The notes under the pieces are model-generated. The model worked only from the letters and a program-made list of their open reading frames with translations, was not told the origin of the DNA and searched no databases. Shown one piece after another: positions 3,448 through 52,359 of a stretch of 64,000 nucleotides of DNA (the stretch's first letter is position 1; every line of letters starts with the position of its first letter). Location: positions 1,364,001-1,428,000 of the forward strand of contig JAWMAR010000077.1 in the NCBI GenBank assembly GCA_036785375.1, written 5' to 3'. The stretch is from Leucoraja ocellata (taxonomy: Eukaryota). The position numbers were made by a program, and so were the translations under genes.

Positions 3448-3892
3448 ATGCGTGCGGAGATCGCAGCGCCCTTGCTGCTCCTGGCCTTCTCCATCTGTAG
3501 GTAGTTCAGGTTTGGCTCATTTTAAGGTTCATGTTATCCCAAAAGGTCGGTAGTAACTGCAGTATTCCTTCAACAGGCTGCTGCCCTTCCCAGTCTCTAC
3601 TCCAGCTAAAAGCATCAAACACCAGATCGAAAGGGAAGACGGCACGCTTTCGCTGCGTCATTAACACCGAGAATGATTTCGACGGTCTGCAGGTGCATTG
3701 GTACCGAAACGCCGTGAGCGGAGGCATGCAGCGCATCCTGTACATCAGCGTGAAATCCGAGCCAGTCAGGGACCCGGGCTTCGGCGACAAATTCTTCGCT
3801 GAGAATTTGTCGAAGGAGAAAGCGAGCCTGTTGGACATCAGAGACATAGACGAGAGCGACGCGGGGGTCTACTACTGTGCTCATTGGAAGAG
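3448..3892 (+). CDS. TRGV: TCR gamma V segment V1 (leader 3448-3496, intron 3497-3576, V exon 3577-3892), apparently functional
   Basis: Leader MRAEIAAPLLLLAFSI; phase-1 intron gtaggt...caacag in frame; Ig V motifs RFRC, VHWYR, DESDAGVYYCAHW; RSS follows directly. Confidence 0.9.
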
Positions 3893-3931
3893 CACAGTGA
3901 TACAACGCCGCGGGAGCCCAGATCAAATACT
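3893..3931 (+). other. 23-RSS of V1
   Basis: CACAGTG + 23 nt + TCAAATACT (divergent nonamer). Confidence 0.85.
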
Positions 3932-4494
3932 CAGCGCCGAGCCGAGGCTGCAGCTTGCCACACTATGTTGCTGTGTTGTTACAGTCGCTCGAGTCAGGTT
4001 AAATCGGCTGTCCATTATTCCCGTCTCAATTGTTCAATCCAATTACCAATTCAGGTTCCAGATATTTGAGAGGGAGAACCGCATGCCGCCGAGACGCTGC
4101 CGCATATTAACCCTGGAAACTGGGCAGAGGCCTAACAACACAAGAACACGCTGGATAAACTGAGGGTCCCTCTTCATGCCAAGCCACCTTTGTGTCCTGG
4201 GGTACTACAGCCGATCTGTACTCTCTAGGCGCTGGAGGCAACTTCCCGGTTCACCCTTCCATCGATCTTGACGCCTTGCGTCCGACTACTCCTGATCCCT
4301 CTCGTTAACTCTGTCTGCCGAGCCTTCGAGCGGGTTCCCCGACCAGCTCTTGGACGAGTTCCCCCTGACCGCGAGTTCCCCCTGACCGCGAGCCTTGGGA
4401 GGAATTGCGACAATTTGGGGGCAGGTTCCTGGTTTCCTGCCGACGAGCCTAAGGCACATGTTGCGGCCGAGGCAGCTCTGGAGGGACAATTTTA

Positions 4495-7764: not shown

Positions 7765-8250
7765 AAAAGATTTACAAGGATGTTCCACCTAAGGGCATGA
7801 GCTGAGGGCATGAGCTATATGGAAAGGATGGGCAGACCAGGACTTTAATCCTTGGAGCACAGGAGGCTGAGGGGTGATCTTTTAAACGTGTATAAGATCT
7901 TGAGGGGATTGGATGGGGTGAAAGCACAGAGTATTTTACCCAAAGTAGGGGAAATCAAGAACCGGGGGACATAGGATTAAGGGGAGGGGAAGATTTAATA
8001 AGAATCTGGGGGCAACTTTTCTCACACAGATGATGGTGGGTATCCAGAAAGAGCTGTCAGAGGCGATAGTTAAGGCAAGTACTACAACGAAATGTAAAAA
8101 GTCAGGTTGGATAGGAAAGGTACACAGACAGGAAAACTTTAGAGGGATATTGGCCAAACGTGGGCAGGTGGGACTGGCGTAGATGGGGCATCTTGGTTGG
8201 CAGGGGAAAATTGGGCTGAAGGGCCTGTTTCCAGGCTGTTTCAATCTCTG
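7765..8250 (+). mobile_element. Older CR1-like LINE 3' fragment
   Basis: Degenerate RRLRGDL / RTGGH region and LINE 3' end. Confidence 0.65.
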
Positions 8251-8837
8251 ACTATTTAGGCAAAAGATAGAATAGGAATGTCAGGGACAAACATATATAT
8301 TTACACAGAGCATCATTATATTCTAAGATTCACTGCCCACGTGGGTGGTGGAAATGTTAGTCAATGCTTTCTCAATCAATTTCTAGACTTCAGATTTCTA
8401 GCATTCACTGTTTTTTAAATCTTTAAAAAGGGAATCGGATGGATACCTGACCCAAGGATCTTGGACTAGGCCTGGGCTATTTTAGTTCAACTTTATCTGA
8501 GAAGGTTAATGAAATGCAGTCAACTTTTGAAAATAAGTGATTTTTCAAAATCGAAGTCGTGAAAAAGTTAAAAATCTGCACACTCAGAAAATCTGAAATA
8601 AAATTAGGAAATGTTGGCAATGCTCAGCAGTTCAGGCAGCACCCCTGGAGTGAGAAACAGTTAACCTTTTGAGTTAAAACCTTCATCAGGAGTTGGGAAA
8701 AGAGAAACAAGTGCTTCAGATCCAGTGACCATGTAAACAATAAATCACATTTATGCAGGCCCACAATGTAGAAGACTCCGATCGGGCTTTCGCAGGAATT
8801 CAACTTAAAACAAGTGCAGAGGAATGAAGTGCAGATG

Positions 8838-15235: not shown

Positions 15236-18095
15236 GTTTCATCAATGAACTCCGTCTGTGTAACAAGTGCACCAAGAAGTGACAATCTACAGCAAGTGAG
15301 TCTAATGAAACATCCTCGCTATTCCATGGCCAGAAAAAGTGAACTGGACCAGCCACTTCACTACTGGGGCAACGCGTACAAGACTAGATATCATGGGATG
15401 ACATTTAAGGATGAGTTTAGCTCCAAACATCTCTCAAAAAGCTCAACACCATCTAGGAAAAGACATTCAAGAGTCTAGAGTTTAATTGTCATGTGCACAG
15501 GGACCAGGCCAACAAAGCTGCTGCTTTACAGACATATTAAATGCAACATTACGAACAATTATACTATAAATTCTCAGTTAAAGCAGCTAGCTAGACCACA
15601 ATAGTATAAGACAAAGTAAGTAGTGGAACCTTATGGAAAGTTCGTAGTAGTTTGGTGCTGAGGTCAGGTTGTGCAATAAGACTCAAAAGCCTGATAAATA
15701 ATGAAAAATCTTCTTTCCAATGGTAACAGCAAGAGCATGTTTCAGGTGGTGTGGATCTTTAATGATCTACTCCTGTAGATCCCGTTAGTGGTGGAGAGGT
15801 CATTATCTGTAGAGTTGCCAGGCTGTATGCTCTCCACCTATAGTAAATCACAAGAGTATTCAGTACTATGCCAAATCTCCTCAAAATTCTGAGGCAGTAG
15901 AGATGTTGGCGAGTTTTATTTTGTAATTGCATCATTATACTGGGCCCAGGATAGATCATCGGAGATCTGTGCATGAGGGAACCTGAAGCTGTTGACTCTC
16001 TATACTGCCACCCCACTAATGAAGACAGGTGTAAGGACACCTCAGTTTTCCCTTCCTGATGAAAAATTAGCTCATTGGACTTGCTAACATTGAGAGCGAG
16101 TTTGTTGTTCTGGTACCACTCAACCAGATTATTATTTTCACTCGTATACTCTGACATCCTTACCATTATTCATCCAACATTGGTGGTGTCATGTGTGAAT
16201 TTAAAGTTTGTGTTGGAGCTGTGTCTGGCTGCACAGTCACGAGTATAGAAATGGTAGGGGATGACTGAGCATGCGGTCTTCATGTGCTTCTCAAGGTCAG
16301 TGTGGAGGAGTTGCGTTTGCCAATTCATACCAATTGAGTTCTGCCACTGAGGAAGTTAAGGATTTTACTTCGGAGTCACGTGAGTGACTACGTGAAGAAC
16401 CCGCCATGGCGCATGCGTATCATATTGCTACAACAATTGCGAAACGACAGGCGGGGTGGAACGATGTTCCCCCGCAGCGGCAAGTTTAAAAGCCGGGACC
16501 GACAGGTAAGTGGTTACTCTGCGGTCTTTATTTTTCCCATACTGTTTCACAGGTGGGAAAACGATGGACAAATCCAAAAAATCAACCAGAGCTGCGACAA
16601 AGCTGGCGGGGGAGGACCGCGGAGTTGCGGGCAGCCAGCAGCGGCCGGCACAGGAATCACACGTAATGGGATCAGCTGTGCCCGACTTAACCCCGCACCT
16701 GCCAGATCAACACCGCGTCCAGGCGGGAAGGCAAAAAGAAAAACAAACGGAGCCGTTGACTCTGAGGAGTCCGACTTTGAGGAGCCACGAGCAGCCAGCG
16801 ACCGTGCGCGCTGGAGCCGGATGGAGCGGCTCATGGAGCAAATGCTCCAACGTGACAGACTCCGGGAGATGGAGTCTAGTCACCGTGGGTCATATATAAC
16901 ACCCACAGCAGCACCTTACCTAGGGCTGCACAGTGCATCTCCCTCGTCAGAGGGGTGTACTGGGGGTCAATTCTGGGCTGACCCCGAAGAGGGGTTTGCT
17001 GAACAAACTACAAGTGTGTAGGGGGTGCAGGAAGGCGAAAATCTACTGGACATGGTGTCCAACTACATACAGCCGGATCAGACTGGACGGAACCTAGAAC
17101 AGAAACTAGCTGCCAGCATTGATGTCCTGTCATTCAAGCAACTACAGGAACAGGCTGTGATGGACACCACTGCCAAATATCTGGCACCAGGAAATTGCGT
17201 ATCCCTGAATGTTCCAGTCGTGAATAATTGTATCTGGAAATACGTCGGAGCAGCAGTTAGAAGCATGGATGTCAAGCTCCAGAGAATACTAAAACTACTA
17301 ACAGCAGGGATCACAGCATTCGCTCGCACAGTGGATGGGAAGGAAATGTCGCAAGAACAACAGGATGTACTGGCATTATTCTGCAATACGCAGTATGAAA
17401 TGTCAGAAAAAGTGCCATCCGACCTGCCTTAAATCCAAAATTTTCAGGCCTGTGCAAACCTGGAGACACAAAGCCACCAATATTATTATTTGGTGGAAAC
17501 CTGTCCAAGCAGGTTAAGGAGCTCGATGAGGCGGCAAAAACCCTGGGGCTCATAAAGGCGACAACAGCAAAGACTTCCCACAGCCACAAACAGCACTCTT
17601 ACGCACCCACCAGCAGAACAGGAGAAGCTGGTAAAAGCTCAAAGGCACGGCATACAGGACAGCGGTCTTTTTTAGGCCATGGCCCAGACCGGCCTTCGTG
17701 GAAAATGCGCAAACCCCAAACCCAAACCCAGACACCGGCACCTCAACCTCCTCGAAGACCACACAGGAAGAAGTAAACCTTCCACTGGTAACCATGGAGG
17801 TAGGTGGGTTTGGTCCCTTACAAATTATAGGAAGTGTGGAAAATACACATATCGGTGGGAGATTACACTTCTTTTGGGAGGCATGGAGTGCATTGACAAC
17901 AGACACTTATATCCTAAACAGTATCCAGGGATATACCATTGAATTTGAGCACAAAAATAGCCCCCCAGTTCAGCATGTACCGAACCGAATGTTCGTACTT
18001 TCATGAAAAGAAAAATTAGAAGCACATGCTGAACTGGTGAGACTTCACGCAAAGGGGGTAATTGAAAAATCCCAACAAATAATTCTCTGGAATTT

Positions 18096-19721
18096 GTGTC
18101 TAATATCTTTACCAAAAACAAAAAAGATGGTGCTTGTCGCATTATCATAGATTTGACCAACTTGAATACATATGTGGAATATATTCATTTCAAAATGGAA
18201 ACCTTAGTTACTGCCAAACAATTGATTTCCAAAGGCTACTTCATGGCTAGCATCGACTTAAAAGATGCTTACTATTCAGTGCCTATACGGACTGACCACA
18301 CACGTTATTTAAAATTCAACTGGATGGGGCAGCGCTGGCAGTATAGAGCTCTACCAAATGGATTAACATCAGCCCTCAGGCTGTTTACAAAAATTTTGAA
18401 ACCAGTCCTAGCGTTTCTTCGGAAACAAAAACATATGATCATGGCCTATCTAGATGACATATTGATTGTGGGCAAAACTTTGGAACTAGCCAAACTAGCT
18501 GTATCAGCCACCAAACAATTGTTTGAGAAACTGGGGTTTATCATCCATCCAGTTAAATCTAAACTAACGCCTTCCACCATAATGGATTATTTGGGGGTCA
18601 CTATTGACTCAGTTCACTTGTTGGTGACTTTACCAAAGGACAAGGCTACAGTCTTAATTGAGGGCTGCAACAACCTCATTGACATCAGTGAACCATCTAT
18701 CAGATTGGTAGCAAGGGTGATTGGCAAAATAATGGCTGCTTTTCCAGCCACACAATTTGGACCTTTGTATTATCAACATTTACAAAGGGCAAAAGTACAA
18801 GCATTCAAAATTAATGCGGGTCATTTCGACAGACCAATGAAGCTACCAATCAAAGCAATTATGGAATTAAAATGGTGGAGGGATAACATTCGGCCTTGTT
18901 CCAGCCCTATTATTATCAGCAACCGCTCAGTGGTGCTACAAACTGATGCCAGTGCGTTTGGTTGGGGTGCAACCAATTCCATCTCCAGTTGTGGAGGTAG
19001 ATGGAATGCACAGGAGGCATCATTACTACAGACACTTGGCATAAACTACCTGGAAATGTTGGATGCGTTCTATGGCCTAAAGTCATACTATTCTGGAATA
19101 TATCACCAGCATGTTAGACTACAGATTGACAATACCACCGTGGTGGCATATATTAACCATATGGGTGGAATCAAATCGACATCATGTGACAATCTGGATA
19201 ATACAAATTGGCAATGGTGTATCCAGAGAAATATTTGAATATCAGCTACTTACCTACCAGGTAACCTAAATTCAGTGGCAGACACCAGGTCACGCAAATT
19301 CAATGAAAACATCGAATGGATGTTGGATATAAAAGTATTTGCTGAAATTGTAGCACAGTATGGAACACCAGATATCGATCTATTTGCATCTAGACTCAAT
19401 CACCAGTTACCAAACTATGTTTCTTGGGAACCAGACCCTGGGGCATCAGCGATAGATGCTTTTTCGCTGCATTGGGGGAAATTGTTTTTCTATGCATTCC
19501 CTCCTTTTGTCTCATCAGTCGGATATTATGCAAAATACAACAAGTCTGGCATTTTGGTAGTGCCCGATTGGCCTACTCAACCATGGTTCCCTGTGATACT
19601 CGACATGGTCTTAGAACCATGTATCACCATCCTGAAACGACCAGATTTGTTGGTTCATCCCGTAACTGGGGATAGCCATCCATGTCATAAAACGACAAAC
19701 TTATTAAGTTGTAGAGTCTAA
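18096..19721 (+). pseudogene. DIRS RT / RNase H / DNA methyltransferase-like ORF, interrupted by stops and frameshifts
   Basis: FMASIDLKDAYYSVPI, AYLDDILI, LQTDASAFGWG, DIDLFASRLN, FFYAFPPF. Confidence 0.85.
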
Positions 19722-19753
19722 AGAGACCTCAACTGGGACTGACGGACCGAACA

Positions 19754-21029
19754 TTGAACGTTATCTCAGCGGCTCACAGGCAGTCCACCAAAAAACAATA
19801 TCTGGTATACATCAGGAAATGGGAGATATATTGCCACAGAAACAACATCACTTACAGCTCGATGAACATAACTTCTGTTCTGGAATTCCTGGCAGGCCTC
19901 CATTATGATGTGGACAAGCTTTTCCCTTTGAGAATAGGGAAGATTCAAACAAGAGGACATGACTTCAGAATTAAGGGACAGAAGTTTAGGGGTAATATGA
20001 GGGGGAACTTCTTTACTCAGAGAGTGGTAGCGGTGTGGAATGATCTTCCAGTGGAAGTGGTGGAGGCAGGTTCATTGGTATCATTTAAAAATAAATTGGA
20101 TAGGCATATGGATGAGAAGGGAATGGAGGGTTATGGTATGAGTGCAGGCAGGTGGGACTAAGGGGAAAAAAAATTTGTTCGGCACGGACTTGTAGGGCCG
20201 AGATGGCCTGTTTCCGTGCTGTAATTGTTATATGGTTATATGGTTATATGATGAGGGGCCCAGTTAAAGTGCCATTAACTGCGCCAGAAGTGCCCTTTCA
20301 GCATATCTATGGCGAGGATCAGAGCGTCATTCTGTTGGGACTCGCCCCCTGGTAACCAAACTTATGAGGGGAATTTTTAATATCAATCCCCCAAGAACCA
20401 GGTACTCTCAAATATGGGATGTGAGTATTGTCCTAACGTTGCTAAGGAACTGGTCTCCAGCAACAGCTCTATCCCTGCAAAAGCTGACGCATAAAACAGT
20501 CATGCTGATGGCTTTGGTCACAGCACAAAGGGTACAGTCTTTACATAAGTTAAGGCTGGACAATACGACTTCTTCAACAAAAAATATAACTTTTCATATT
20601 CACGAATTAGTCAAACAGAACAGACCGGGATCATCAGGCCTCAAAATAGAATTCGGGGCCTACCCTATAGATGATCGTCTCTGTATAATAAGACATTTAT
20701 TGTTATATATGGAGAACACCAAAAACATCAGAGGCAATGAGATGGCATTACTAATCAGCCACAAGCAACCCCACAAAAAAGTGTCGGTTCAAACTATTTC
20801 CAGATGGCTGAAACCGGTTTTAACAACAGCTGGGGTGGATACTAACATATTCAAATCTCATTCCATCAGGGCTGCAGCTACATCGGCAGCTATGGAGTTG
20901 GACGTACCGATGGACCAAATCCTGGAGACAGCAGGATGGTCAAGGGAAAAAACGTTCCAACAATTCTACCATAAACCAGTGGTTAAACCTGGAGCTTTTG
21001 CAGAATCAATTTTAAGTTCTGTAATATGA
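19754..21029 (+). pseudogene. DIRS tyrosine recombinase, interrupted by a LINE fragment and a stop
   Basis: Catalytic motifs TAQR, VKQ, HSIR, AGW, FY. Confidence 0.85.
19911..20246 (+). mobile_element. 5'-truncated CR1-like LINE inserted into the DIRS YR gene
   Basis: Same family as 9525-10785; flanked by TATGATG at 19904-19910 and 20247-20253. Confidence 0.9.
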
Positions 21030-40483: not shown

Positions 40484-43000
40484 CGCTACATCCCCCCCCC
40501 CCCCCCCCCCCCCCACCCCTCCAGAATCAGCGGTACGGAAATGCAGGGGTAACCGGACGGTTCGACCGAAACACGTAGTTCGAGGTCGCGAGGCGAGCGT
40601 AACATTTGGGGCCGGCAAAACAGAACCGGAGAGACGCGACAAATGCGAACGAGGGACGGGCGTAACAGGGGGGACCGGTGAAACATAACCGGGGGTAACA
40701 GGTGCAGAGGGCGGCAAAACGGCTGGCAGACGCCCCCAACGCCGTGGAGCGGTCACAGACACCGGGCTATCCTCGTCGACGCAGGCTGCTTAAGGCAGCT
40801 GACGGAGCCGAAACCTCCCTGCTACCCATGTCCAACGTGATAGTCGAGGAACCAGTCTCTTCCACCTTGTACGGTCCTTCGTACACCCGCTGTAACGGCG
40901 AGCGGTGAGCATCCCTATGAAGGAAAACATAAGCACAATCCCGTAACATAGTAGGCACATGCACCGCGGCCCACCCATGTCGGGAGGTGGGAACCGGGAC
41001 CAACGCGTGCCCGCTCGCGAAGGTCAACTAGACCGCCCAAGCTGGGACCTCCTGATCGCGAGTGGCGGGCAGAAAATCCCCAGGTACCCGCAAAACCGAG
41101 CCATAAACCAGCTCGGCCAAGGAGGCGTCGAGATCTTCCTTTGGCATAGTTCTGATGTCTAGGAGAACCCAGGGCAACTGGTCAACCCAATCGGGGCTGG
41201 TGAACCGGGCCTTCAATGCCGACTTAAGGTGTCTATGAAACAGCTCGACTAAATCATAGAAACATAGAAACATAGAAACATAGAAACATAGAAATTAGGT
41301 GCAGGAGTAGGCCATTCGGCCCTTCGAGCCTGCACCGCCATTCAATATGATCATGGCTGATCATCCAACTCAGTATCCCGTACCTGCCTTCTCTCCATAC
41401 CCCCTGATCCCCTTGGCCACAAGGGCCACATCTAACTCCCTCTTAAATATAGCCAATGAACTGGCCTCAACTACCCTCTGTGGCAGAGAGTTCCAGAGAG
41501 ATCCAGAGAAATCATTCGACTCCGGATGATACGCGATGGTCTGGTGCAACTTCGCGTCGTACAGCTGCACCATACCACACCGCACGGAGGACGTGAACTG
41601 GGCCGCACGATCGGTAGTGATATCTGAAGGAACTCCGACATGAGTGATCCAATTGGAGGCAATAGCGAGGGCACAAGCCTAAGCGGAGTTATCGGTTAAC
41701 GGTATCGCCTCCACCCACCTGTTGAACCTACCTACGATGGTTAGTAGGTGATTGGCCCCACGCGAACACGACAAGGGACCCACCAGGTCAACATGGATGT
41801 GCAGGAACCTGCCGACTGGAACAGCGAATTCCTGCACGGGCGGGTGCACATGCCTCTGCACCTTGGAGGTCTGACAGGGGATACAAGCGCGGGCCCATGC
41901 TGCGACCTGATTTCGTAACCCGTGCCAGACGAACTTGGAAGCAGCCAGGGCAGAGGTGGCATGGATGGACGGGAGACCTAGGCTGTGGATGGTGTCGAAA
42001 ATCCGACGCCTCCAGGCAATCGTGACGATCGGGTGGGCTTTACCCGTTGAGACATCGCAAATGACACGCAGCCTGCGGCGCCGCAAGGCACTTCAGTCAG
42101 CTTGAGACCCGATTCAGCATTGCGGTAAACCTCCATGCCGGCATCAGCCCTTTGGACCAAAGATCCTAGGCCGCTGCCAGCTCCGCATAATCCACATCTC
42201 GGCCGGACGGGACAGCGGGTCGGCCACAATGTTCAGCTTCCCCGCCACATGCCGAATGTCAAACATGAATTCGGATATGAAGGCGAGGTGCTGCTGTTGC
42301 CTGGCAGACCAGGGGTCGGACACCTTATTCAAGGCGAACGTGAGCGGCTTGTGGTCCGTGGATGCGGTGGACGAGCGGCCCTCTAGGAAATACCGGAAAT
42401 GTCGGATCGCTAGGTAAAGTGCGAGGAGCTCCCGATCGAAAGCGCTGTACTTGATCTCCGGGGCCGGCAGCTGCCTGCTGCAAAACGCCAGCGGCAGCCG
42501 ACTGTTACCTACCCGCTGCTCGACGTCCAATGCATCCATGGTGAGATGCCCTCGGGTGTACCAGCATGCCAGCGCGCTAGTAGCCCCCTCGAAAGCTATA
42601 CCGGCCTTCTTGGACCAAACCAGGTCATTGTGCTTGCCCACCAGACATTGGAACAACGGCCGCATGATGGCGGCTGCTGACAGGACGAATCGGTGGTAGA
42701 AATTGACCATTCTGATGAATTCCTGCAAGCCCTTGACGGATAGTGGCCTCGGGAAATGACGGATCGCGTCGACCTTCTCAGGCAGCGGTTGTGCGCCTTG
42801 GCAGGTTACCCTGTGACCTAAAAGGGAGATGGAGCGCAATCCAAACCGGCACTTCGCGGGGTTGATCACCAACCCATGCTTAGGCAGCCATTCAAAGAGC
42901 AGGCGGAGATGCCTAACGAGTTCAGTCTGCGAACTGCTGGCCACCAGAATATCATTGAGATAGATTAATCCAAACGGCAAACCCTCAGCCGTAGAGTTAT
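40484..43000 (-). mobile_element. Second Mag-type Gypsy relic (RT, RNase H, integrase, PPT)
   Basis: IYLNDILVAS, YSAFDRELLA, TDHKPL, HIHVDLVGPL; G-rich PPT followed by TGTAGCGG on the minus strand; CR1 tail inserted at 41255-41499. Confidence 0.85.
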
Positions 43001-43280
43001 GTGCATGTAATCCTAGATCCCTCTGCTTACTCAACACTCCCAGGGTAGTACCCTGCCAGCTTTACCAAATATTTATCAATTTTTCTCTTTTGATTATTTT
43101 CTATAGCGTCCTATTTTTCTATAGCGTCCTACCAATAATAACTCTTAAACCAACTGGCGTAATTCCCCAACTTTTGTTTTTTGAACAAGTTACATTTGCT
43201 GTTTCCTAATCTTCTGGTACCCACCCAGAGTTTATCAATTTATGAGATGTTTCAACCAATGGATTTTCCATCTCTGTAGT

Positions 43281-44082: not shown

Positions 44083-44550
44083 ATGAAGCCGGTCGTGGCT
44101 GTCATTTTATTTATCTCCTTTTTCGGTCAGTAGTATTAATGTTAACGCCAATTTTCATGAGCCTTTTGCTGTCCCCTTATGAAACAGTTCGATAACTTTG
44201 TGCTTTTTTCTCTCCCCCCCCCCCCCCCCCCCTCCCAAGCAGGTAAATCGGCGCCCCAAACATTGATACAGTCCCAGTTATCGATCACCAAAGATGCCAC
44301 GAAATCTGTGCGCTTTCACTGTGAAGTTAAAAACATAGCGTTCAGCGGAGCTGTTATACATTGGTACCGGCAGAGGCAGGGAGAAGGGCTGCAGCGGCTG
44401 CTGTATTTTAAAACGCCATCGGACCAACAGAAGGACGTGACCGACCAAAGGTTATTTGTTGAAAAAGTTATTGAAACTAAATCGTGCACTCTGATCTTGA
44501 AGACCATCCGGGCGAACGATGCTGGTACATATTACTGCGCTTACTGGCAA
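44083..44550 (+). CDS. TRGV: TCR gamma V segment V5 (leader 44083-44125, intron 44126-44242, V exon 44243-44550)
   Basis: Leader MKPVVAVILFISFF; intron gtcagt...aagcag; LIQSQLSITK, FHC, IHWYRQR, DAGTYYCAYW in an open frame. Confidence 0.92.
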
Positions 44551-44589
44551 CACGGTGGCCGACAGCGGCGGGGAACCAGTACATAAACT
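44551..44589 (+). other. 23-RSS of V5
   Basis: CACGGTG + 23 nt + ACATAAACT. Confidence 0.9.
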
Positions 44590-45364
44590 CAACATACCAA
44601 TGTTATCCATTGTGCTCGTTTAACTTGTTCAAAAACAATTAACAGGTGTGGTGCATGCATATCTCCGTCTAAGGTGAACGCAGATGTTCAAAATGTGAAA
44701 CAAGCACGGAAAATGATTCAATCATGGCGGATGTATCTATCCTTCTCAAAACCATTCTCCTGCCTTCTCCCGCATAACCTTTGACACCCTTACTAATCAA
44801 GAATATGTCAAGCTCTGCTTTAAAAATACCCAATGACGGCTTCCGCAGCCGTCTGTGGTAATGAATTCCGCAGATTCACCACTGGAGTACCCGGAAAAAC
44901 ATATGTGGCCACTAAAGAATTTCCTCCTCCTCTCCCTTCTAAAGGTACGCCATTTTATTCTGAGGTTGTACCCTCTGGTCCGAGATTCACCCACGAGTGG
45001 AAACATCCTCTCCACATCATTTTCCCATGGCTATCATATAAACCCACTGACTCCCATGGCTATCTGGACTACACTTCTTCCCACCCTACTTCCTATAAGG
45101 ACTCCATCCCCTACTCCCAATTCCTCCGTCTACTCCGCATCTGCTCCCAGGATGAGGCATTCCACACCAGGGCATCTGAAATGTCCTCATTCTTCAGGGA
45201 ACGGGGGTTCCCCTCCTCCACCATAGATGAGGCTCGCACCAGGGTCTCTTCCATACCCCGCAACACTGCTCTCTCTCCCCATCCCCACACTCGCAACAAG
45301 GGCAGAGCCCCTTAGTCCTCACCATTCACCCCACCAGCCGTCACATACAACAAATAATCCTCCG

Positions 45365-47541
45365 TTTAATCAAGGCAGGGGACGATATGGACAAATAATT
45401 TCCTTTTATTACTTCACAGAGAACACCCGAAGATAAGGGAAGAAACACCATTCTCTAAAAGTTTAAAATGGAAGAGCATTTCCACGTGCGCTGGTCTAGA
45501 CACCTTATCTCCTTTGGACGCTTTGGAATTCAACTCAAGGACATTCTTTGTTCAAAATGAAGGAAAGACTGATAAGCAATGCAGAGACGAACAGCAGAGC
45601 CGAATGTGGAATACATCACAAGGACAAATGGCGGTTTAAGATCTTAAAATAGCTTTACAAAATATAGAGAATTAACAATAATTATCAATACTAATATAGA
45701 AATATAAATGGAAACTAACCTGAACTATATAATGGGCAAAATGTAATAATGTGCTAAAAAGACTGACTAGCTCGTATATAGAGATAACAAATTTTAGAAT
45801 TAAAGTAGATAATACTGAAAGTTTAAGTGCTATGTAGCTTGTGTGGGGAAGGGAGGAGACTCAGGCACCTGGCATAATTCCAGGAGCCTGTTTCTGGTTA
45901 ACCCTTACAGCTAACAGCTTACTATTATCAAAGGTATAACTAATTATAAATAATTAGTAAATGAAAGTGTTAGATAAATAAATTTCACAGTAGCTGAACA
46001 CAGATTTGATAAGTCTAAAATGAAATATTAATGGGTGTAATTGGGTGAAATATAATTGATTTTGAAATGGTACCGCCCTCCTAGGTTTAGAGTAATAAAG
46101 GGCGCGGAGCTAATTGTACAACATCAACTTCGGAAGTCGAATAGATGTCGAATCCCACAGATGCGTGGGACACGCACTACAGTGTCGAATACTCCAGACA
46201 CTGTAATTTTACTTGTTCAATTTTTTTAAAAATCACAATATGTCACTACTATGTGTTTTTTTTTCAAGGACAATCGCAAAAGGGATCTACTAAGGAAGTT
46301 AGTAATATAAACGCCCCCCAAATATCCAGAGTCCTGAGGTATGGATGCACCGTAATAAATAAGGATATTAAAATCAGAGAAAATGCAAGATGATAAACAA
46401 AAGAAAATGGGAGGAATCACACGGTGTAGCTGGAATATAAGGGGTATTAATGAACCAATTAAAAGGGGCAAAATACTAGCTCAGTTGAAATCATATAACA
46501 CGGACATTACTTTTCTACCAGAAACGCATCTTAAACATCAAGATCAGATGAGATTGAGGGCGAATTGGATAGGCCAAACATTTCACTCCTCATATACTTT
46601 GAAATCCAGAGGCACCGCAATTATTATTCGCAAAGGAATACCATTCAAATCAAAGAACACTGTATCAGATAAGGAAGGGAGATATCTTATAGTTACAGAA
46701 GAGATCCATGCTACGCCAATCACTTTGGTAAACATATATGCACCCAATTTTGATAATCTTCAATTTTTTAATAAAATCCTGAATATAATCCCAGAATTTA
46801 ACTACAAAAATGTTATAATTGGAGGAGACTTCTACTGTGTTTTAGATCCGTATTTAGATAAATCGATGCAAAAACAAAGAGGTAATATGAAATCTAAAAC
46901 TAGTGAACTGTTAAATACATATATAAACAATACAAATATAGCAGACTTTGGAGGATCGCGAATTCGACTGGCAGGGAATACTCATTTTATTCAATGGTAC
47001 ACAAAACATACTCACTTCCTAGTGGATACAAAACTAATCCCTTATACTATGAACCCTAAATATCACACCAATACGATTTCAGATCACTCCCCGCTAACTT
47101 TTGTTTTAAAATTAGAAGGAATGTCTACGAACAAATCGTTCTGGAGGTTTAACTCGCAAATTCTGAAAGACCCACAAGGGAGTATATATCTAAAAAAACA
47201 GATGGACCTATTTTTTTAGACAAACGATACACCAGATATATCAAAGGTATAACTAATTATAAATTGTAATTGTAATTGTAAATCTTTATTGTCATTTCCT
47301 GAGTATTCGCATACTCAGAGGAAACAAAAAAACGTTTCTCAACCAGTGTCCATTCAGTTTTCGTTACAAAATAAATAGCAATTAAAATTAAAATACATGT
47401 CATGAACAATTTAACCCTCTAATAACATTCAATAACATTCAACAGCCGTTCCGACTGTTATATATTATAATAATTAGTAAATGAAAGTGTTAGATAAGTA
47501 AATTTCACAGTAGCTGAACACAGATCTGATAAGTCTAAATG

Positions 47542-47583
<42 letters not shown>

Positions 47584-50500
47584 TAATTGGGTGAAATATA
47601 ATTGATTTTGAAATGGTACCGCCCTCCTAGGTTTAGAATAATAAAGGGAGCGAAGCTAATTGTACAACATCAACTTCGGAAGTCGAATAGATGTCAAATC
47701 CCACAGATGCGTGGGACATGCACTACAGTGTCGAATACTCCAGACACTGTAATTTTACTTGTTCAATTTTTTTTTAAATCACAATATGTCACTACTATGT
47801 GTTTTTTTTCAAGGACAATCGCAAAAGGAATCTACCAAGGAAGTTAGAAATATAAACGCCCCCCAAATATCCAGCGTCCTGAGGTATGGATGCACCGTAA
47901 ATCTGTCTGAAGAAGGGTTTCGGCCTGAAACGTCGCCTATTTCCTTCGCTCCATAGATGCTGCTGCACCCGCTGAGTTTCTCCAGCAATTTTGTGTACCA
48001 CCAGATATATCGCCCACTTTACTATGGGAATCCTTCAAAGCATTTATTAGAGGAGTCATTATCTCATATCAAGCTTTTCAAAACAAAAAGAATAAGAATG
48101 AACAAAGACAATTAGAAGAACAAATCAGACAACTAGATATAGATAATGCTAAAGATCCAACTATGGATAAACATAATAAAATTTGAATACTGAAATTTAA
48201 GCGAAGTAAATTATTGTCAGAGAATGTTATAAGATTATTCCAAATTACAAAACAAGAACATTTCGAATTTGGGGATAAACCCCATAAACTTTTAGCACGC
48301 CAACTGAAAAAAACGGGAAAAAGATCATGCAATTTTAAAGATTAAATCAGATAGAAGGGAATTAACACTACCTAATGATATCAATAAAAGATTTGCTCAA
48401 TTTTACAAGAATTTATACACATCGAAAACGCTAATAGACAATAATAAAGTTTCAGACTTTTTGGACAATTGTAACCTTCCAAAACTAGAACTGAAGGAAC
48501 AAGAGGAACTGGGAGCACAAATTACATCTAAGGAAATAGAAGACACAATAAACACACTTAAGAATGGAAAAACACCAGGACCAGACGGATTCAGTAATGA
48601 ATTTTATAAATGTATTTACGACATAGTTACACCACGTCTACAGAAAATGTATACATACGCTTTTAAAGAACAAATCTTACCTGAAACACTAGCAGAATCA
48701 ACGATCACATTAATACTTTAAAAAGATAAAGATATAGAAGAACCAGGCTCATATAGAGCTATTGCTTTCTTAAATACGGATCAAAAAATATTAGCGAAAA
48801 CACTAGCTAGAAGACTAAGTCAATATGTTAGTAAATTAATAAATGAGGATCAAACGGGATTTATACCTAAAAGACATTCATTTAATAACCTGAGACGTCT
48901 GCTTAACATAATGCACTCTCACAAACCTCAAGAACAAGAGTTATCTATCATTTCATAGGACGCAGAAAAAGTGTTTGATCAAGTAGAATGGGATTATATG
49001 ATTAAAGTATTGCAAAAATTTCAAATGGGAGAGAACTTCATCGCATGGATAAAATTATTATATAACAAACCCACGGCTAGAATATTAACTAATAATATAC
49101 TATCTATGAAATTCCAATTATCAAGGGACAATAGACAAGGATGTTCATTATCACCGCTGTTATTTGCTCTGGTAATTGAACCTTTAGCTGAAAAAGTCAG
49201 AACACACTCGGATATTTACGGTTATAATACAAAATACTCAAATAACAAAATATCCTTATACACAGACGATGTACTACTGTATATCACAAAACCCCAAATC
49301 AGTATACCAAACATATTAAATCTAATTGAGGACTTTGGATCTTTCTCAGGATACAGAATAAACTGGAACAAAAGTGAAATTATTTCAATAAAACCGAAAG
49401 ACTCAACACATCTCTTTAAATTCCCCTTTAAAATAGCCACAGAAAAATTTAAATATTTAGGAATTGAAATCACTAGAAACTATCACGCTATGTTTAATGC
49501 CAATTATAGCCCCTTACTTAAGAAACTAAATAATCTAATCAAATTCTGGAAAACGCTCCCAATGTCTTTAATAGGTCAAATAAATGCTATAAAAATGATA
49601 TTTTTTACCACAAATCCTATATTTATTTCAATCGTTACCTATATATCTTCCAAAAACGTTTTTCAAAAAGTAGACTCAGACATTACAAATTTTATATGGG
49701 ATTATAAATCCTACAGAATACAAAGAGCACACCTTAGTAAACCAAAAGAGATGGGTGGTCTAGCGCTCCCTAACTTTATGTACTATAATTGGGCAGTAAA
49801 TATTAAAAATATTATTCACCTGCTGGACAATTCTGCCCAGCAGGTGGACTGGATTGTAATGGAGAGAGAGGACTGCTCTCCGTGTAATACAGGAGCGATT
49901 CTCCTCTCACCAATGAATCTGAATAACAAAAATTATAATAAAAATCCAATGATACATGGCACAATTAGAACTTGGAAATAAATAAAACAGAATCTAAAAT
50001 TAAGAAATCTATCTCTGCTAATGCCAATAGTCAATAACCCGTTGTTTAAACCTTCAATTATAGATAAATCATTTACACAATGGGAAAGAATGGGAATCAA
50101 AACGCTCAGAGACTTGTATGAATTAGGAAAATTATTATCATTTCAACAATTACAACTGAAATATAATTTGAAAAATAATCAATATTTTAAATATCTTCAA
50201 ATCCGTGACTATCTGAAAAAATACACAAAAGACTATCATAACATGCCCCCAGACTTATTGGATGAAGCCATGAAGACAAAGGCTGAAGCAGCAAATCTAA
50301 TATCATACTTATACAATATTATTTTAAATATAGAAATACCTACAACCGATGGTATTAGAAGAGACTGGGAACAAGAACTAGCTATAAAAATTTCAAAAGA
50401 GAGCTGGGATAAACACTATATGTGCATAAATGCTCGATCAATGTATGATATACTCTAATTCAATTTAAAACATTACATAGATTATATTATTCAGAAACTA

Positions 50501-51322
50501 AAATAAATAATTTTTTCCCCATTGTCTCACCCATTTGTGATAAATGTCAGTCACAAGAAGCTACCATAGTGCACTCTTTTGGTTTTTGTATAATAATCCA
50601 AAAATTCTGGAACGAAATATTTGAAATCTTCACAAAATTAATTAAAATAAAACTTGTACCAAAAGCAGAATGGATCATTTTTGGAATATCGGAAGGTAAC
50701 CCCGAATTAAACGTGTTTCAAAAGAACTTACTTAATTACAGGCTAATAATGGGAAAAAAGCTTATACTCAAATTTTGGAAAAATGCTCCAATACCAACAG
50801 TAAAAATGTGGATTTCAAACATGTTCGAAACACTACACCTGGAAGAGATGAGACTCCTCCTAGCAGACAAAGCAGACCACTTCCAAAAGACGTGGTCTGC
50901 ATTTATGGAACTATTACAAGCATAAGGTGCAATAGTAATTTAAAATATAAATGGTACCAGGATCTGGTAACGGGGGGTATAAAATAAAAAAATTAAAAAA
51001 ACACGGTTGGTATATTCTTTTTTGCGGAGTTTTGTGTTATAATAGAGTGATTGTTTTTCCTTTTTTCTTTTCTTTCTAGGGGCTATTTTCTTTCTTTACT
51101 TCCTTCTCTAACTTCTTCCCTAAGTGGCTTTCTTCTCTCAACACTTTCCCGCACCTTCACGATTCTTGCTCACTTTCCTTACTTCTTTTATTTCTACCTT
51201 TTTTAAAGCTCGAAAAACGAAGTGGTACAACAAATGTAATAAGATATATGTGATGTATATTACTGTAATTTACTGTACTTATAATTTAAAAAAAAATAAA
51301 TAAATAAAAATAAATAAATAAA
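45365..51322 (+). mobile_element. L1-clade LINE (5'-truncated, degenerate ORF2)
   Basis: APE endonuclease SWNIRG...FLPETH...SDH (46383-47219); RT KTPGPDG, QGCSLSPLLF, LYTDD; A-rich tail; 13-bp TSD AAATAATCCTCCG (45352-45364 / 51323-51335). Confidence 0.92.
47243..47998 (+). mobile_element. Chimeric insertion: copy of local L1 segment 45931-46353 fused to a Penelope hammerhead terminus
   Basis: Flanked by CACCAGATATATC (47230-47242 / 47999-48011). Confidence 0.8.
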
Positions 51323-52359
51323 AAATAATCCTCCGCCATTTCCGCCACCTCCAACATGACCCCAACCACTCGCCACATCTTCCCATCACCCCCAATGTCT
51401 GCGCTCCGCAAAGACCACTCCCTCTGCAACTCCTTTGTCAATCCCTTCCCTCCCATACCACCCCCTACCCGGGCACTTTCCGTTGCAACCGCAAGAAATG
51501 CAACATCTGTCCTATTACCTCCCCTCTCAACTCCATTCAAGGACCCAAGCAGTCATTCCAGGTGCGACAGAGGTTCACCTGTATCTCCTCCAACCTCATC
51601 TACGGCATCCGCTGCTCTAGATGTCAGCTGATCTACATCGGTGAGACCAAGCGGAGGTTGGGCGATCGTTTCGCCAAACACCTCTGCTCGGTCCACAAGA
51701 ACCTACCTGACCTCCCGGTGGCTCAGCACTTCAACTCCCCCTACCACTCCGAATCCGACCTCTCTGTCCTGGGTCTCCTCCATGGCCAGAGCGAGCAACA
51801 CCGGAAATTGGAGGAATAGCACCGTTTGGGGAGTCTGCATCCGGGGGGCATGAACATTGAATTCTCCCAATTTTGCTAGCCCTTGCTTTCTCCTCCCTTT
51901 CCTTAGCCCTCAGGCTGTCTCCTCCCATCCCCCAGCCCTCAGGCACCTCCTCCTTTTTCCTTCCTTCTCCCTGCCACTCCCTATCAGTCTGAAGAAGGGT
52001 TTCGGCCCGAAATGTTGCCTATTTCCTTCGCTCCATAGATGCTGCTGCACCCGCTGAGTTTCTACAGCCTTTTTGTGTACCTCCTCACCACATCCACTCT
52101 ATCCAGGCCTTTTGTTTATTCGGCGTTTCAATGAAGTACACCCTCATTCTCCAAGAAGTGGGATGAAATGTACCCCACTTGCCTGGATGAGTGCAGATCC
52201 AACAACACTGGATTCTTGGCAGCTAAGTGTTTGAAACCCACCGATATCTTCACTCCCACGGTGACCTCTGCATTATGGCCGCAGTGTTTGTGATACACAC
52301 AGATTTGAGTCAAAACCAAGGGAGTGCCATAGGAGCACCTTCACCATGCCGACTCTAAA

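Follow-up and report, generated by a model that had tools for sequence, protein, structure and literature searches.

A 5'-truncated Penelope-like terminus and a copy of nearby L1 spacer enclosed by one 13-bp target-site duplication in Leucoraja ocellata

The window, that is, the whole stretch of 64,000 nucleotides of Leucoraja ocellata DNA analysed here (assembly GCA_036785375.1, contig JAWMAR010000077.1), contains a V-set exon followed by a Penelope-like element, an L1 nested in that element, and a composite insert nested in the L1. T-cell-receptor gamma chains were the best single-domain matches for the exon, which lies 1.4 kb upstream of the L1 segment represented in the insert. The host L1 starts at approximately the ORF1 stop and therefore lacks both a promoter and ORF1. 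The first-pass annotation had assigned the outer Penelope-like element a span of 45019-52081, an ending like that of the insert, and a 13-bp target-site duplication (TSD); the span and the ending were confirmed, and the TSD was found to carry one mismatch. Positions 47901-48002, which begin with the terminus in the insert, share 92% identity with the final part of the outer element. The last reading frame of that element matches GIY-YIG with an E value of 4.5e-4, just under the Pfam cut-off, and on this match the terminus family appears to possess a C-terminal GIY-YIG endonuclease. A CX4CxxC motif precedes the GIY-YIG remnant. Given that CX2-5CxxC ahead of GIY-YIG is described as a mark of Neptune and Nematis elements (excerpts of PMC8557442), this linker motif suggests that the outer element is of the Neptune/Nematis type. 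The features are as follows.

44161..44589, + strand: V-set exon, T-cell-receptor gamma V-like, with heptamer, 23-bp spacer and nonamer at 44551-44589
45019..52081, + strand: outer Penelope-like element hosting the L1, 5'-truncated; TSD 45006-45018 / 52082-52094, 12/13 identical
45365..51322, + strand: host L1, 5'-truncated at about the ORF1 stop; TSD 45352-45364 / 51323-51335 (13 bp)
45930..46355, + strand: source of the copy, the spacer that separates ORF1 from ORF2 in the host L1; TATC at 45926-45929 stands immediately before it
47230..47242, + strand: left TSD, 13 bp of L1 ORF2 sequence, its last four bases forming the microhomology with the source
47243..47264, + strand: captured copy, first 22 bp (source 45930-45951; 22/22 identical)
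47265..47463, - strand: 3' end of a younger, unrelated LINE, 199 bp, with a short tandem tail; boundaries approximate to a few bases
47464..47900, + strand: captured copy, remainder, matching the inter-ORF spacer of the host L1 as far as 46355; its (TA)n is expanded
47901..47998, + strand: Penelope-like terminus, 5'-truncated, 98 bp, without the 3' tail extension
47999..48011, + strand: right TSD, exact over 13 bp

The window has only two occurrences of the 13-mer CACCAGATATATC, one at 47230-47242 and the other at 47999-48011 (spacing, 769), and the match is not extendable; the rough probability of such a 13-mer arising by chance within 2 kb is ~5e-4. The 756 bp between the duplications disrupt ORF2 of the host L1 (endonuclease, 46359-47216; reverse transcriptase, 48959-49978), and other copies of the host L1 family are contiguous across the insertion site and have a single 13-mer. 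The first-pass annotation had correctly recognized the 756-bp insert with its 13-bp duplication and about 100 bp of Penelope terminus, now placed at 47901-47998 (98 bp). The parts that it listed summed to ~520 bp rather than 756, with the rest being mainly the 199-bp LINE end that it had overlooked, and the copy that it placed at 45931-46353 is joined at TATC as described, with limits refined to 45930-46355. This TATC is common to the end of the left TSD and to 45926-45929, just before the source. The junction between copy and Penelope terminus shows no clear microhomology (0 nt, rising to 2 nt when a slip of 3 nt is permitted), and the bases preceding 47901 recur after 47998 for four letters at most. 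The copied segment contains neither an intron nor poly(A) and lies on the same strand as its source, in the sense of the host L1 and of the upstream V gene. As is expected of an insertion by an endonuclease-bearing Penelope-like element, the TSD begins directly at the terminus; it is exact over 13 bp, with the mode of the family being 14 bp. The structure of the insert, composed of TSD, spacer copy and Penelope terminus, is real.

The younger LINE splits the captured copy after its first 22 bp. It is very young: among 1245 candidates for this element, all 39 of the other scored matches were 99-100% identical to it. A reverse transcriptase frame is present in its longer copies, from which we take it to be Rex1/Babar-like. 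It is missing from a second assembled copy of the whole locus situated 243 kb downstream (L002, L031 and L032), where the insert measures 533 bp; the original insert was therefore 533 bp.

The second locus copy has the same TSD and identical junctions, differs from the first by 1-2%, and lies in a stretch of at least 140 kb that is collinear at ~97.8% identity and whose start directly follows an assembly gap. This copy could represent the other haplotype instead of a true duplication; in either case it is a separately assembled sequence with the same junctions, which speaks against the misassembly that the first-pass annotation had named as a refuting result. The substitutions peculiar to the captured copy are common to both assembled copies, one TSD bounds both parts of the insert with the second copy identical in this respect, and no empty orthologous allele was seen. 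The scaffold is repeat-rich and contains gaps. Among the matches listed for three public contig sets and one RNA run, no piece bridged the chimeric junction; those listed for 47150-48100 in four public contig sets were repeat-derived pieces only; both results are evidence neither way, and no RNA holder was found among the public runs listed. Joints that skip 769 in alignments of public contigs are what other L1 copies give.

Copy and source are separated by 11-15 substitutions in ~385 aligned sites, plus microsatellite differences. For the comparison of identities, three simple-sequence tracts were masked and 67 distinct other L1 segments from 109 loci were included, the segment searches having scored 40 of 753, 40 of 467 and 40 of 450 candidates. 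In this masked comparison the two insert copies were nearest to each other (4 differences), then to the local segment (11/362 and 13/385 differences), and then to the best of the 67 other segments (14/332 and 17/355). As the first-pass annotation had proposed, the nearest neighbour of the copy among the L1 segments compared is thus the local one and not a distant L1. A first ranking by raw identity, in which distant L1 copies (93-94%) stood above the local segment (89%), was misleading because of the (TA)n and the younger insertion, and was reversed once both were masked. Source and copy share 45960A, present in 2 of the 67 other segments, and 46018A, present in 1; none of the 67 has the two together. 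They also share one CpG change and subfamily markers, such that near-private support for local ancestry among the 67 segments compared amounts to one CpG site in addition to the two bases. In a tree limited to the 65 sequences of sufficient length, source and copy were united in one clade with a bootstrap value of 99 (93/99 without CpG columns). These comparisons make a local source of some kind highly probable, and no distant copy of the extra sequence was found among the 67 segments.

The private bases of the copy, in source coordinates, are 45978G, 46107A, 46150A, 46173T, 46284A, 46303A and 46330C. Derived bases number seven on the branch of the copy and three on that of the source (p = 0.34, not significant), and a reading of the excess as a mark of error-prone synthesis was accordingly dropped. 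The copy retains the (TA)n of the family, whereas the local segment has changed there. With the L1/Penelope junction as query, full-length matches were confined to this locus and its second copy (40 of 1883 candidates scored). As far as searched, the chimera is therefore not a dispersed family, in agreement with the first-pass annotation; among the candidates scored it is neither dispersed nor arranged in tandem, as a non-autonomous family or a retrozyme would be.

The terminus at 47901-47998 is 99% identical to many dispersed copies; like the outer element it is 5'-truncated, and none of the copies retrieved was full-length. A minimal hammerhead-like motif can be recognized by eye at 47907-47934 by comparison with excerpts of PMC4209133: it has the CUGANGA and GAAA boxes, an extra base after A9, a palindromic 15.2-16.2 and an NUH site. 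It departs from the minimal type I hammerhead of Penelope-like elements (PLEs) in having G-U at 47915/47926 instead of G10.1-C11.1, where most relatives have C, and in a helix I of two pairs by eye rather than the expected 4-5 bp. The hammerhead of the first-pass annotation was thus retained as a motif by eye and was not matched in Rfam, a scan of the window at E values up to 1 having given four matches with no hammerhead among them. RNA folds of four termini had z-scores of -0.29 to 0.50, and their lowest-energy folds did not contain the motif. The predicted cut falls after 47934, 33 nt downstream of the junction between copy and terminus, which indicates that the copied RNA was uncut there. 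The role given to the ribozyme in the first-pass annotation is not upheld: cleavage as the maker of the junction was rejected on the position of the junction, and the ribozyme predicted from the motif did not set it. This offset agrees with work on a purified PLE protein, which cuts and extends both target strands, has no need of ribozyme cleavage, and initiates internally at two positions by which the optional tail is defined (excerpts of PMC11167929).

We gathered termini of the family from four genome searches and from 1.06 Mb of contiguous sequence that includes the window. The two partly overlapping listings comprised 205 and 97 termini, with 44 of the 97 lacking a TSD by the thresholds used and left unclassed. 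After duplicate loci and matches internal to the element had been removed, the survey covered inserts of 40-1100 bp with a TSD of at most 22 bp, and, at search-derived loci, sources up to 1.5 kb away. It yielded 114 insertions (63 direct and 51 inverted two-arm), with a TSD of 13-16 bp in 81 and a mode of 14 bp. In the contiguous sample, the preferred end point of the arms lies immediately before the hammerhead motif (55/92 at 80-99 nt from the terminus and 1 at 100-109); the Penelope piece of the present insert (94-98 nt) has the modal length of the family, and solo stubs of similar length account for 36 of the 63 direct insertions.

At least 10 non-element bases were present in 30 of the 114 insertions. 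Judged against control flanks, only two contained clear local copies: the present insert and L100, in which 33 bp repeat, in inverted orientation, the bases located 5-37 upstream of its own TSD. One of the 113 other TSD-bounded insertions thus had a clear local copy (33 bp), and 0/113 had one of hundreds of bases. Local capture by this Penelope family is rare, and the proposal in the first-pass annotation of a general route for duplicating local sequence is not borne out by this sample. Candidates rejected as captures were L292 (394 bp of a common repeat matched better by control flanks), L297 (219 bp of a palindromic repeat without a local match), L115, L186 and L170/L171 (tandem or duplicated context) and the weak 26-mer of L104. 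Several long candidate TSDs were element-internal matches and were filtered out.

Anatomy, nesting order, local ancestry and the position of the junction are shown by the sequence comparisons. With regard to how the insert formed, the explanation that we consider probable is that the whole insert arose in one event, during which synthesis templated by DNA 0.9-1.3 kb upstream closed the break. The GIY-YIG endonuclease would cut both strands 13 nt apart, and reverse transcription from the downstream end would halt after 94-98 nt, the usual stop of the family ahead of the motif. A free 3' end would then copy ~426 nt of local DNA and be released, and the ends would be joined at the TATC microhomology. 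The cDNA end might anneal to an exposed upstream strand, copy leftwards and re-anneal at the target end; alternatively, the upstream target end might prime at TATC on the intact duplex and then be end-joined to the cDNA. Copying of the DNA by the polymerase of the element or by a host repair polymerase would fit either way. This account of a single, DNA-templated event is supported because the exact TSD starts at the terminus and is within the range of the family, and because both target ends are active in the family, as seen in the 51/114 inverted insertions and in L100, with the purified PLE protein likewise acting on both strands (excerpts of PMC11167929). Given that the copy/Penelope junction shows no clear microhomology, a template jump or end-joining suits it better than annealing. 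The four-base TATC microhomology itself may be due to chance. The first-pass annotation had proposed that Penelope reverse transcription switched template onto local DNA or RNA; a single Penelope-made insertion with a locally templated 5' part is the portion of that proposal that stands. In place of a switch by the Penelope reverse transcriptase itself, synthesis primed at the upstream DNA end or carried out by a host polymerase would fit equally well.

A local template might also have been RNA, with the Penelope reverse transcriptase leaving its own RNA, jumping to a read-through transcript of the host L1 and being joined at TATC. Such a jump would proceed without homology, the local ancestry of the copy fits equally, and the orientation of the copy in the sense of the L1 and the V gene suits a read-through RNA as well, with same-strand orientation also being found in L1 template-switch chimeras (excerpts of PMC13174262). 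Because the copied segment has no intron, its sequence cannot show an RNA intermediate. The host L1, however, lost with its 5' end the promoter from which it could have supplied RNA, the outer Penelope is likewise 5'-truncated, and the nearest obvious promoter is that of the V gene. The V gene promoter works in lymphocytes, whereas the insertion was heritable; the absence of promoters from the host elements and the heritability of the event together favour a DNA template and leave the read-through RNA unlikely. A chimera with RNA of a different, closely related L1 that landed in an L1 of the same family would agree with the number of differences between copy and source, with the (TA)n retained by the copy, and with the nonsignificant excess of derived bases on its branch. 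We nevertheless regard this as very unlikely, given that the copy clades with the local segment, that none of the 67 other segments is closer, and that a chance landing 0.9 kb from a homologous segment would be improbable.

The two parts of the insert might instead have arrived in two steps, by a repair-templated local duplication and a later solo Penelope stub at its edge, or in the reverse order. Solo stubs of this length are common, and nesting is rife at the locus, as the younger LINE illustrates; but one TSD of Penelope-typical length encloses both parts and starts exactly at the terminus, the bases before 47901 are not repeated after 47998 beyond four letters, and both assembled copies hold both parts, all of which renders the two-step history distinctly unlikely. 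The repeat-rich, gapped scaffold and the lack of a bridging read among the matches listed are what an assembly artefact might leave, and later gene conversion might give a distantly derived copy a local look. Either would be extremely improbable, with two assembled copies 1-2% apart having identical junctions and shared copy-specific substitutions, and with gene conversion being expected to erase differences and not to leave them.

The single DNA-templated event that we favour has counterparts in several systems. Endonuclease-bearing Penelope elements of Adineta vaga captured host DNA, and resemble the present insert in TSD-bounded non-element DNA that ends in a Penelope terminal repeat and in microhomology at 5' junctions, for which template jumps were proposed (excerpts of PMC3846280). 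In those elements terminal repeats enclose the cargo, which originated at distant loci (same excerpts), whereas the present insert has a single terminus and directly copies sequence 0.9-1.3 kb upstream. L1 insertion sites can show templated genomic insertions and local rearrangements (excerpts of PMC11702581), and R2 insertions "snap-back", "extra template" and "other" 5' junctions (excerpts of PMC11331408); in these as in the present insert, a target-primed insertion gained genomic sequence at its 5' junction while the break was being closed. The present insert differs in its enzymes, presumably a GIY-YIG endonuclease plus a PLE reverse transcriptase, and in being a germline fossil and not an experiment. 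Among L1 chimeras (U6/L1, Alu/L1 and mRNA/L1), two-part insertions within one TSD and a 5' partner in the same orientation are likewise found, with partners that are abundant RNAs from elsewhere and not, as here, the neighbourhood of the target itself (excerpts of PMC13174262).

Truncated 5' ends of Neptune-type PLEs carry a minimal hammerhead and an optional 30-40-bp tail (excerpts of PMC4209133, PMC8557442 and PMC11167929). The present family resembles them in its terminus, motif layout, optional tail, inverted forms and the CX2-5CxxC linker of the outer element; the present copy differs in its G-U for the conserved G10.1-C11.1 and in a helix I of only two pairs. Duplications associated with the Dualen LINE in Chlamydomonas are similar in that a retroelement insertion is accompanied by duplication of hundreds of bases nearby, but they are giant flanking TSDs (excerpts of PMC9977147), whereas the present insert has a TSD of 13 bp and a copy that derives from a non-adjacent segment. 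In a literature search that covered few subscription journals, no description emerged of direct copies templated by local sequence at the 5' junctions of Penelope elements, and the available portions of bioRxiv 2024.08.27.596794 and 2026.07.22.740005 contained nothing on local capture.

Published work already documents both the capture of host DNA by Penelope ends and templated sequence at L1 insertions, and this locus, though real and well resolved, is one fossil of a type of junction event that is known. The insert is a dead one-off product. The copied DNA is dead L1 spacer alone, with no V gene and no signal sequence, and the relevance to an antigen-receptor locus suggested in the first-pass annotation is not sustained: the event was single and old, and it changed nothing at the T-cell-receptor locus. 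It is conceivable, if rather doubtful, that the Penelope polymerase, at its fixed stop ahead of the hammerhead, jumps to a resected host strand and copies hundreds of bases, and that an abundant family could in this way have seeded about a thousand short local duplications in cartilaginous-fish genomes, occasionally including exons or recombination signals. The value of the locus would rise only as part of a catalogue covering the whole genome and distinguishing DNA templates from RNA templates. The later steps of PLE insertion were still unvalidated in excerpts of PMC11167929, and a one-armed insertion with a long same-strand local addition is a useful fossil for how such insertion is completed: the 5' junction would be closable by hundreds of bases of nearby-templated synthesis, with the TSD intact and without ribozyme cutting.

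The arms of the Penelope-like family stop sharply at 80 to 99 nt from the terminus throughout the family, examples in the window being found at 47901 and 8843. The stop point coincides with a TCAGTC motif that is initiator-like, and it may correspond to the 5' end of the RNA or to a stall. In the retrieved locus L100 (4859-4891 and 4892-4935), the 5' junction of a Penelope stub has a 33-bp copy, inverted, of its own upstream flank. Four inverted insertions (L170, L171, L291, and L295) bear at the inversion point short tandem arrays whose unit is an approximately 33-nt piece of the hammerhead region, and another (L297, approximately 7770-8290) has a 219-bp palindromic repeat between its two arms that looks like a later MITE.

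The LINE 3' end at 47265-47463 belongs to a very young family, with dozens of 3' ends genome-wide being 100% identical among the matches listed. Given that it was found in just one of the two copies of the locus, this insertion is possibly polymorphic. The spacer between ORF1 and ORF2 of the L1 family (L020, other L1 loci, and window 45368-46384) was unusually long, at approximately 1 kb, and contained (TA)n of variable length.

The window also contains two V-set exons and other retroelement sequences:

3501-4163, V-set exon
18066-21029, reverse transcriptase frame followed by a tyrosine-recombinase frame, a DIRS-like arrangement
42144-43061, minus strand, LTR-type reverse transcriptase/RNase H fragment
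44161-44589, V-set exon with a 23-bp-spacer recombination signal, T-cell-receptor gamma V-like

The window is part of a segment, no shorter than 140 kb, that is present in two copies on the same contig (approximately 1,348,700-1,489,700 versus 1,588,836-1,727,800) with approximately 97.8% identity, the second being located approximately 240 kb downstream of the first and its start at 1,588,836 being directly preceded by an assembly gap. Same-contig pairs of like kind were apparent among the retrieved loci (L003/L004, L122/L123, L129/L130, L138/L139, L148/L149, and L347/L348). The recurrence of such pairs suggests the presence of uncollapsed haplotypes, and V-gene counts in this region may be inflated.
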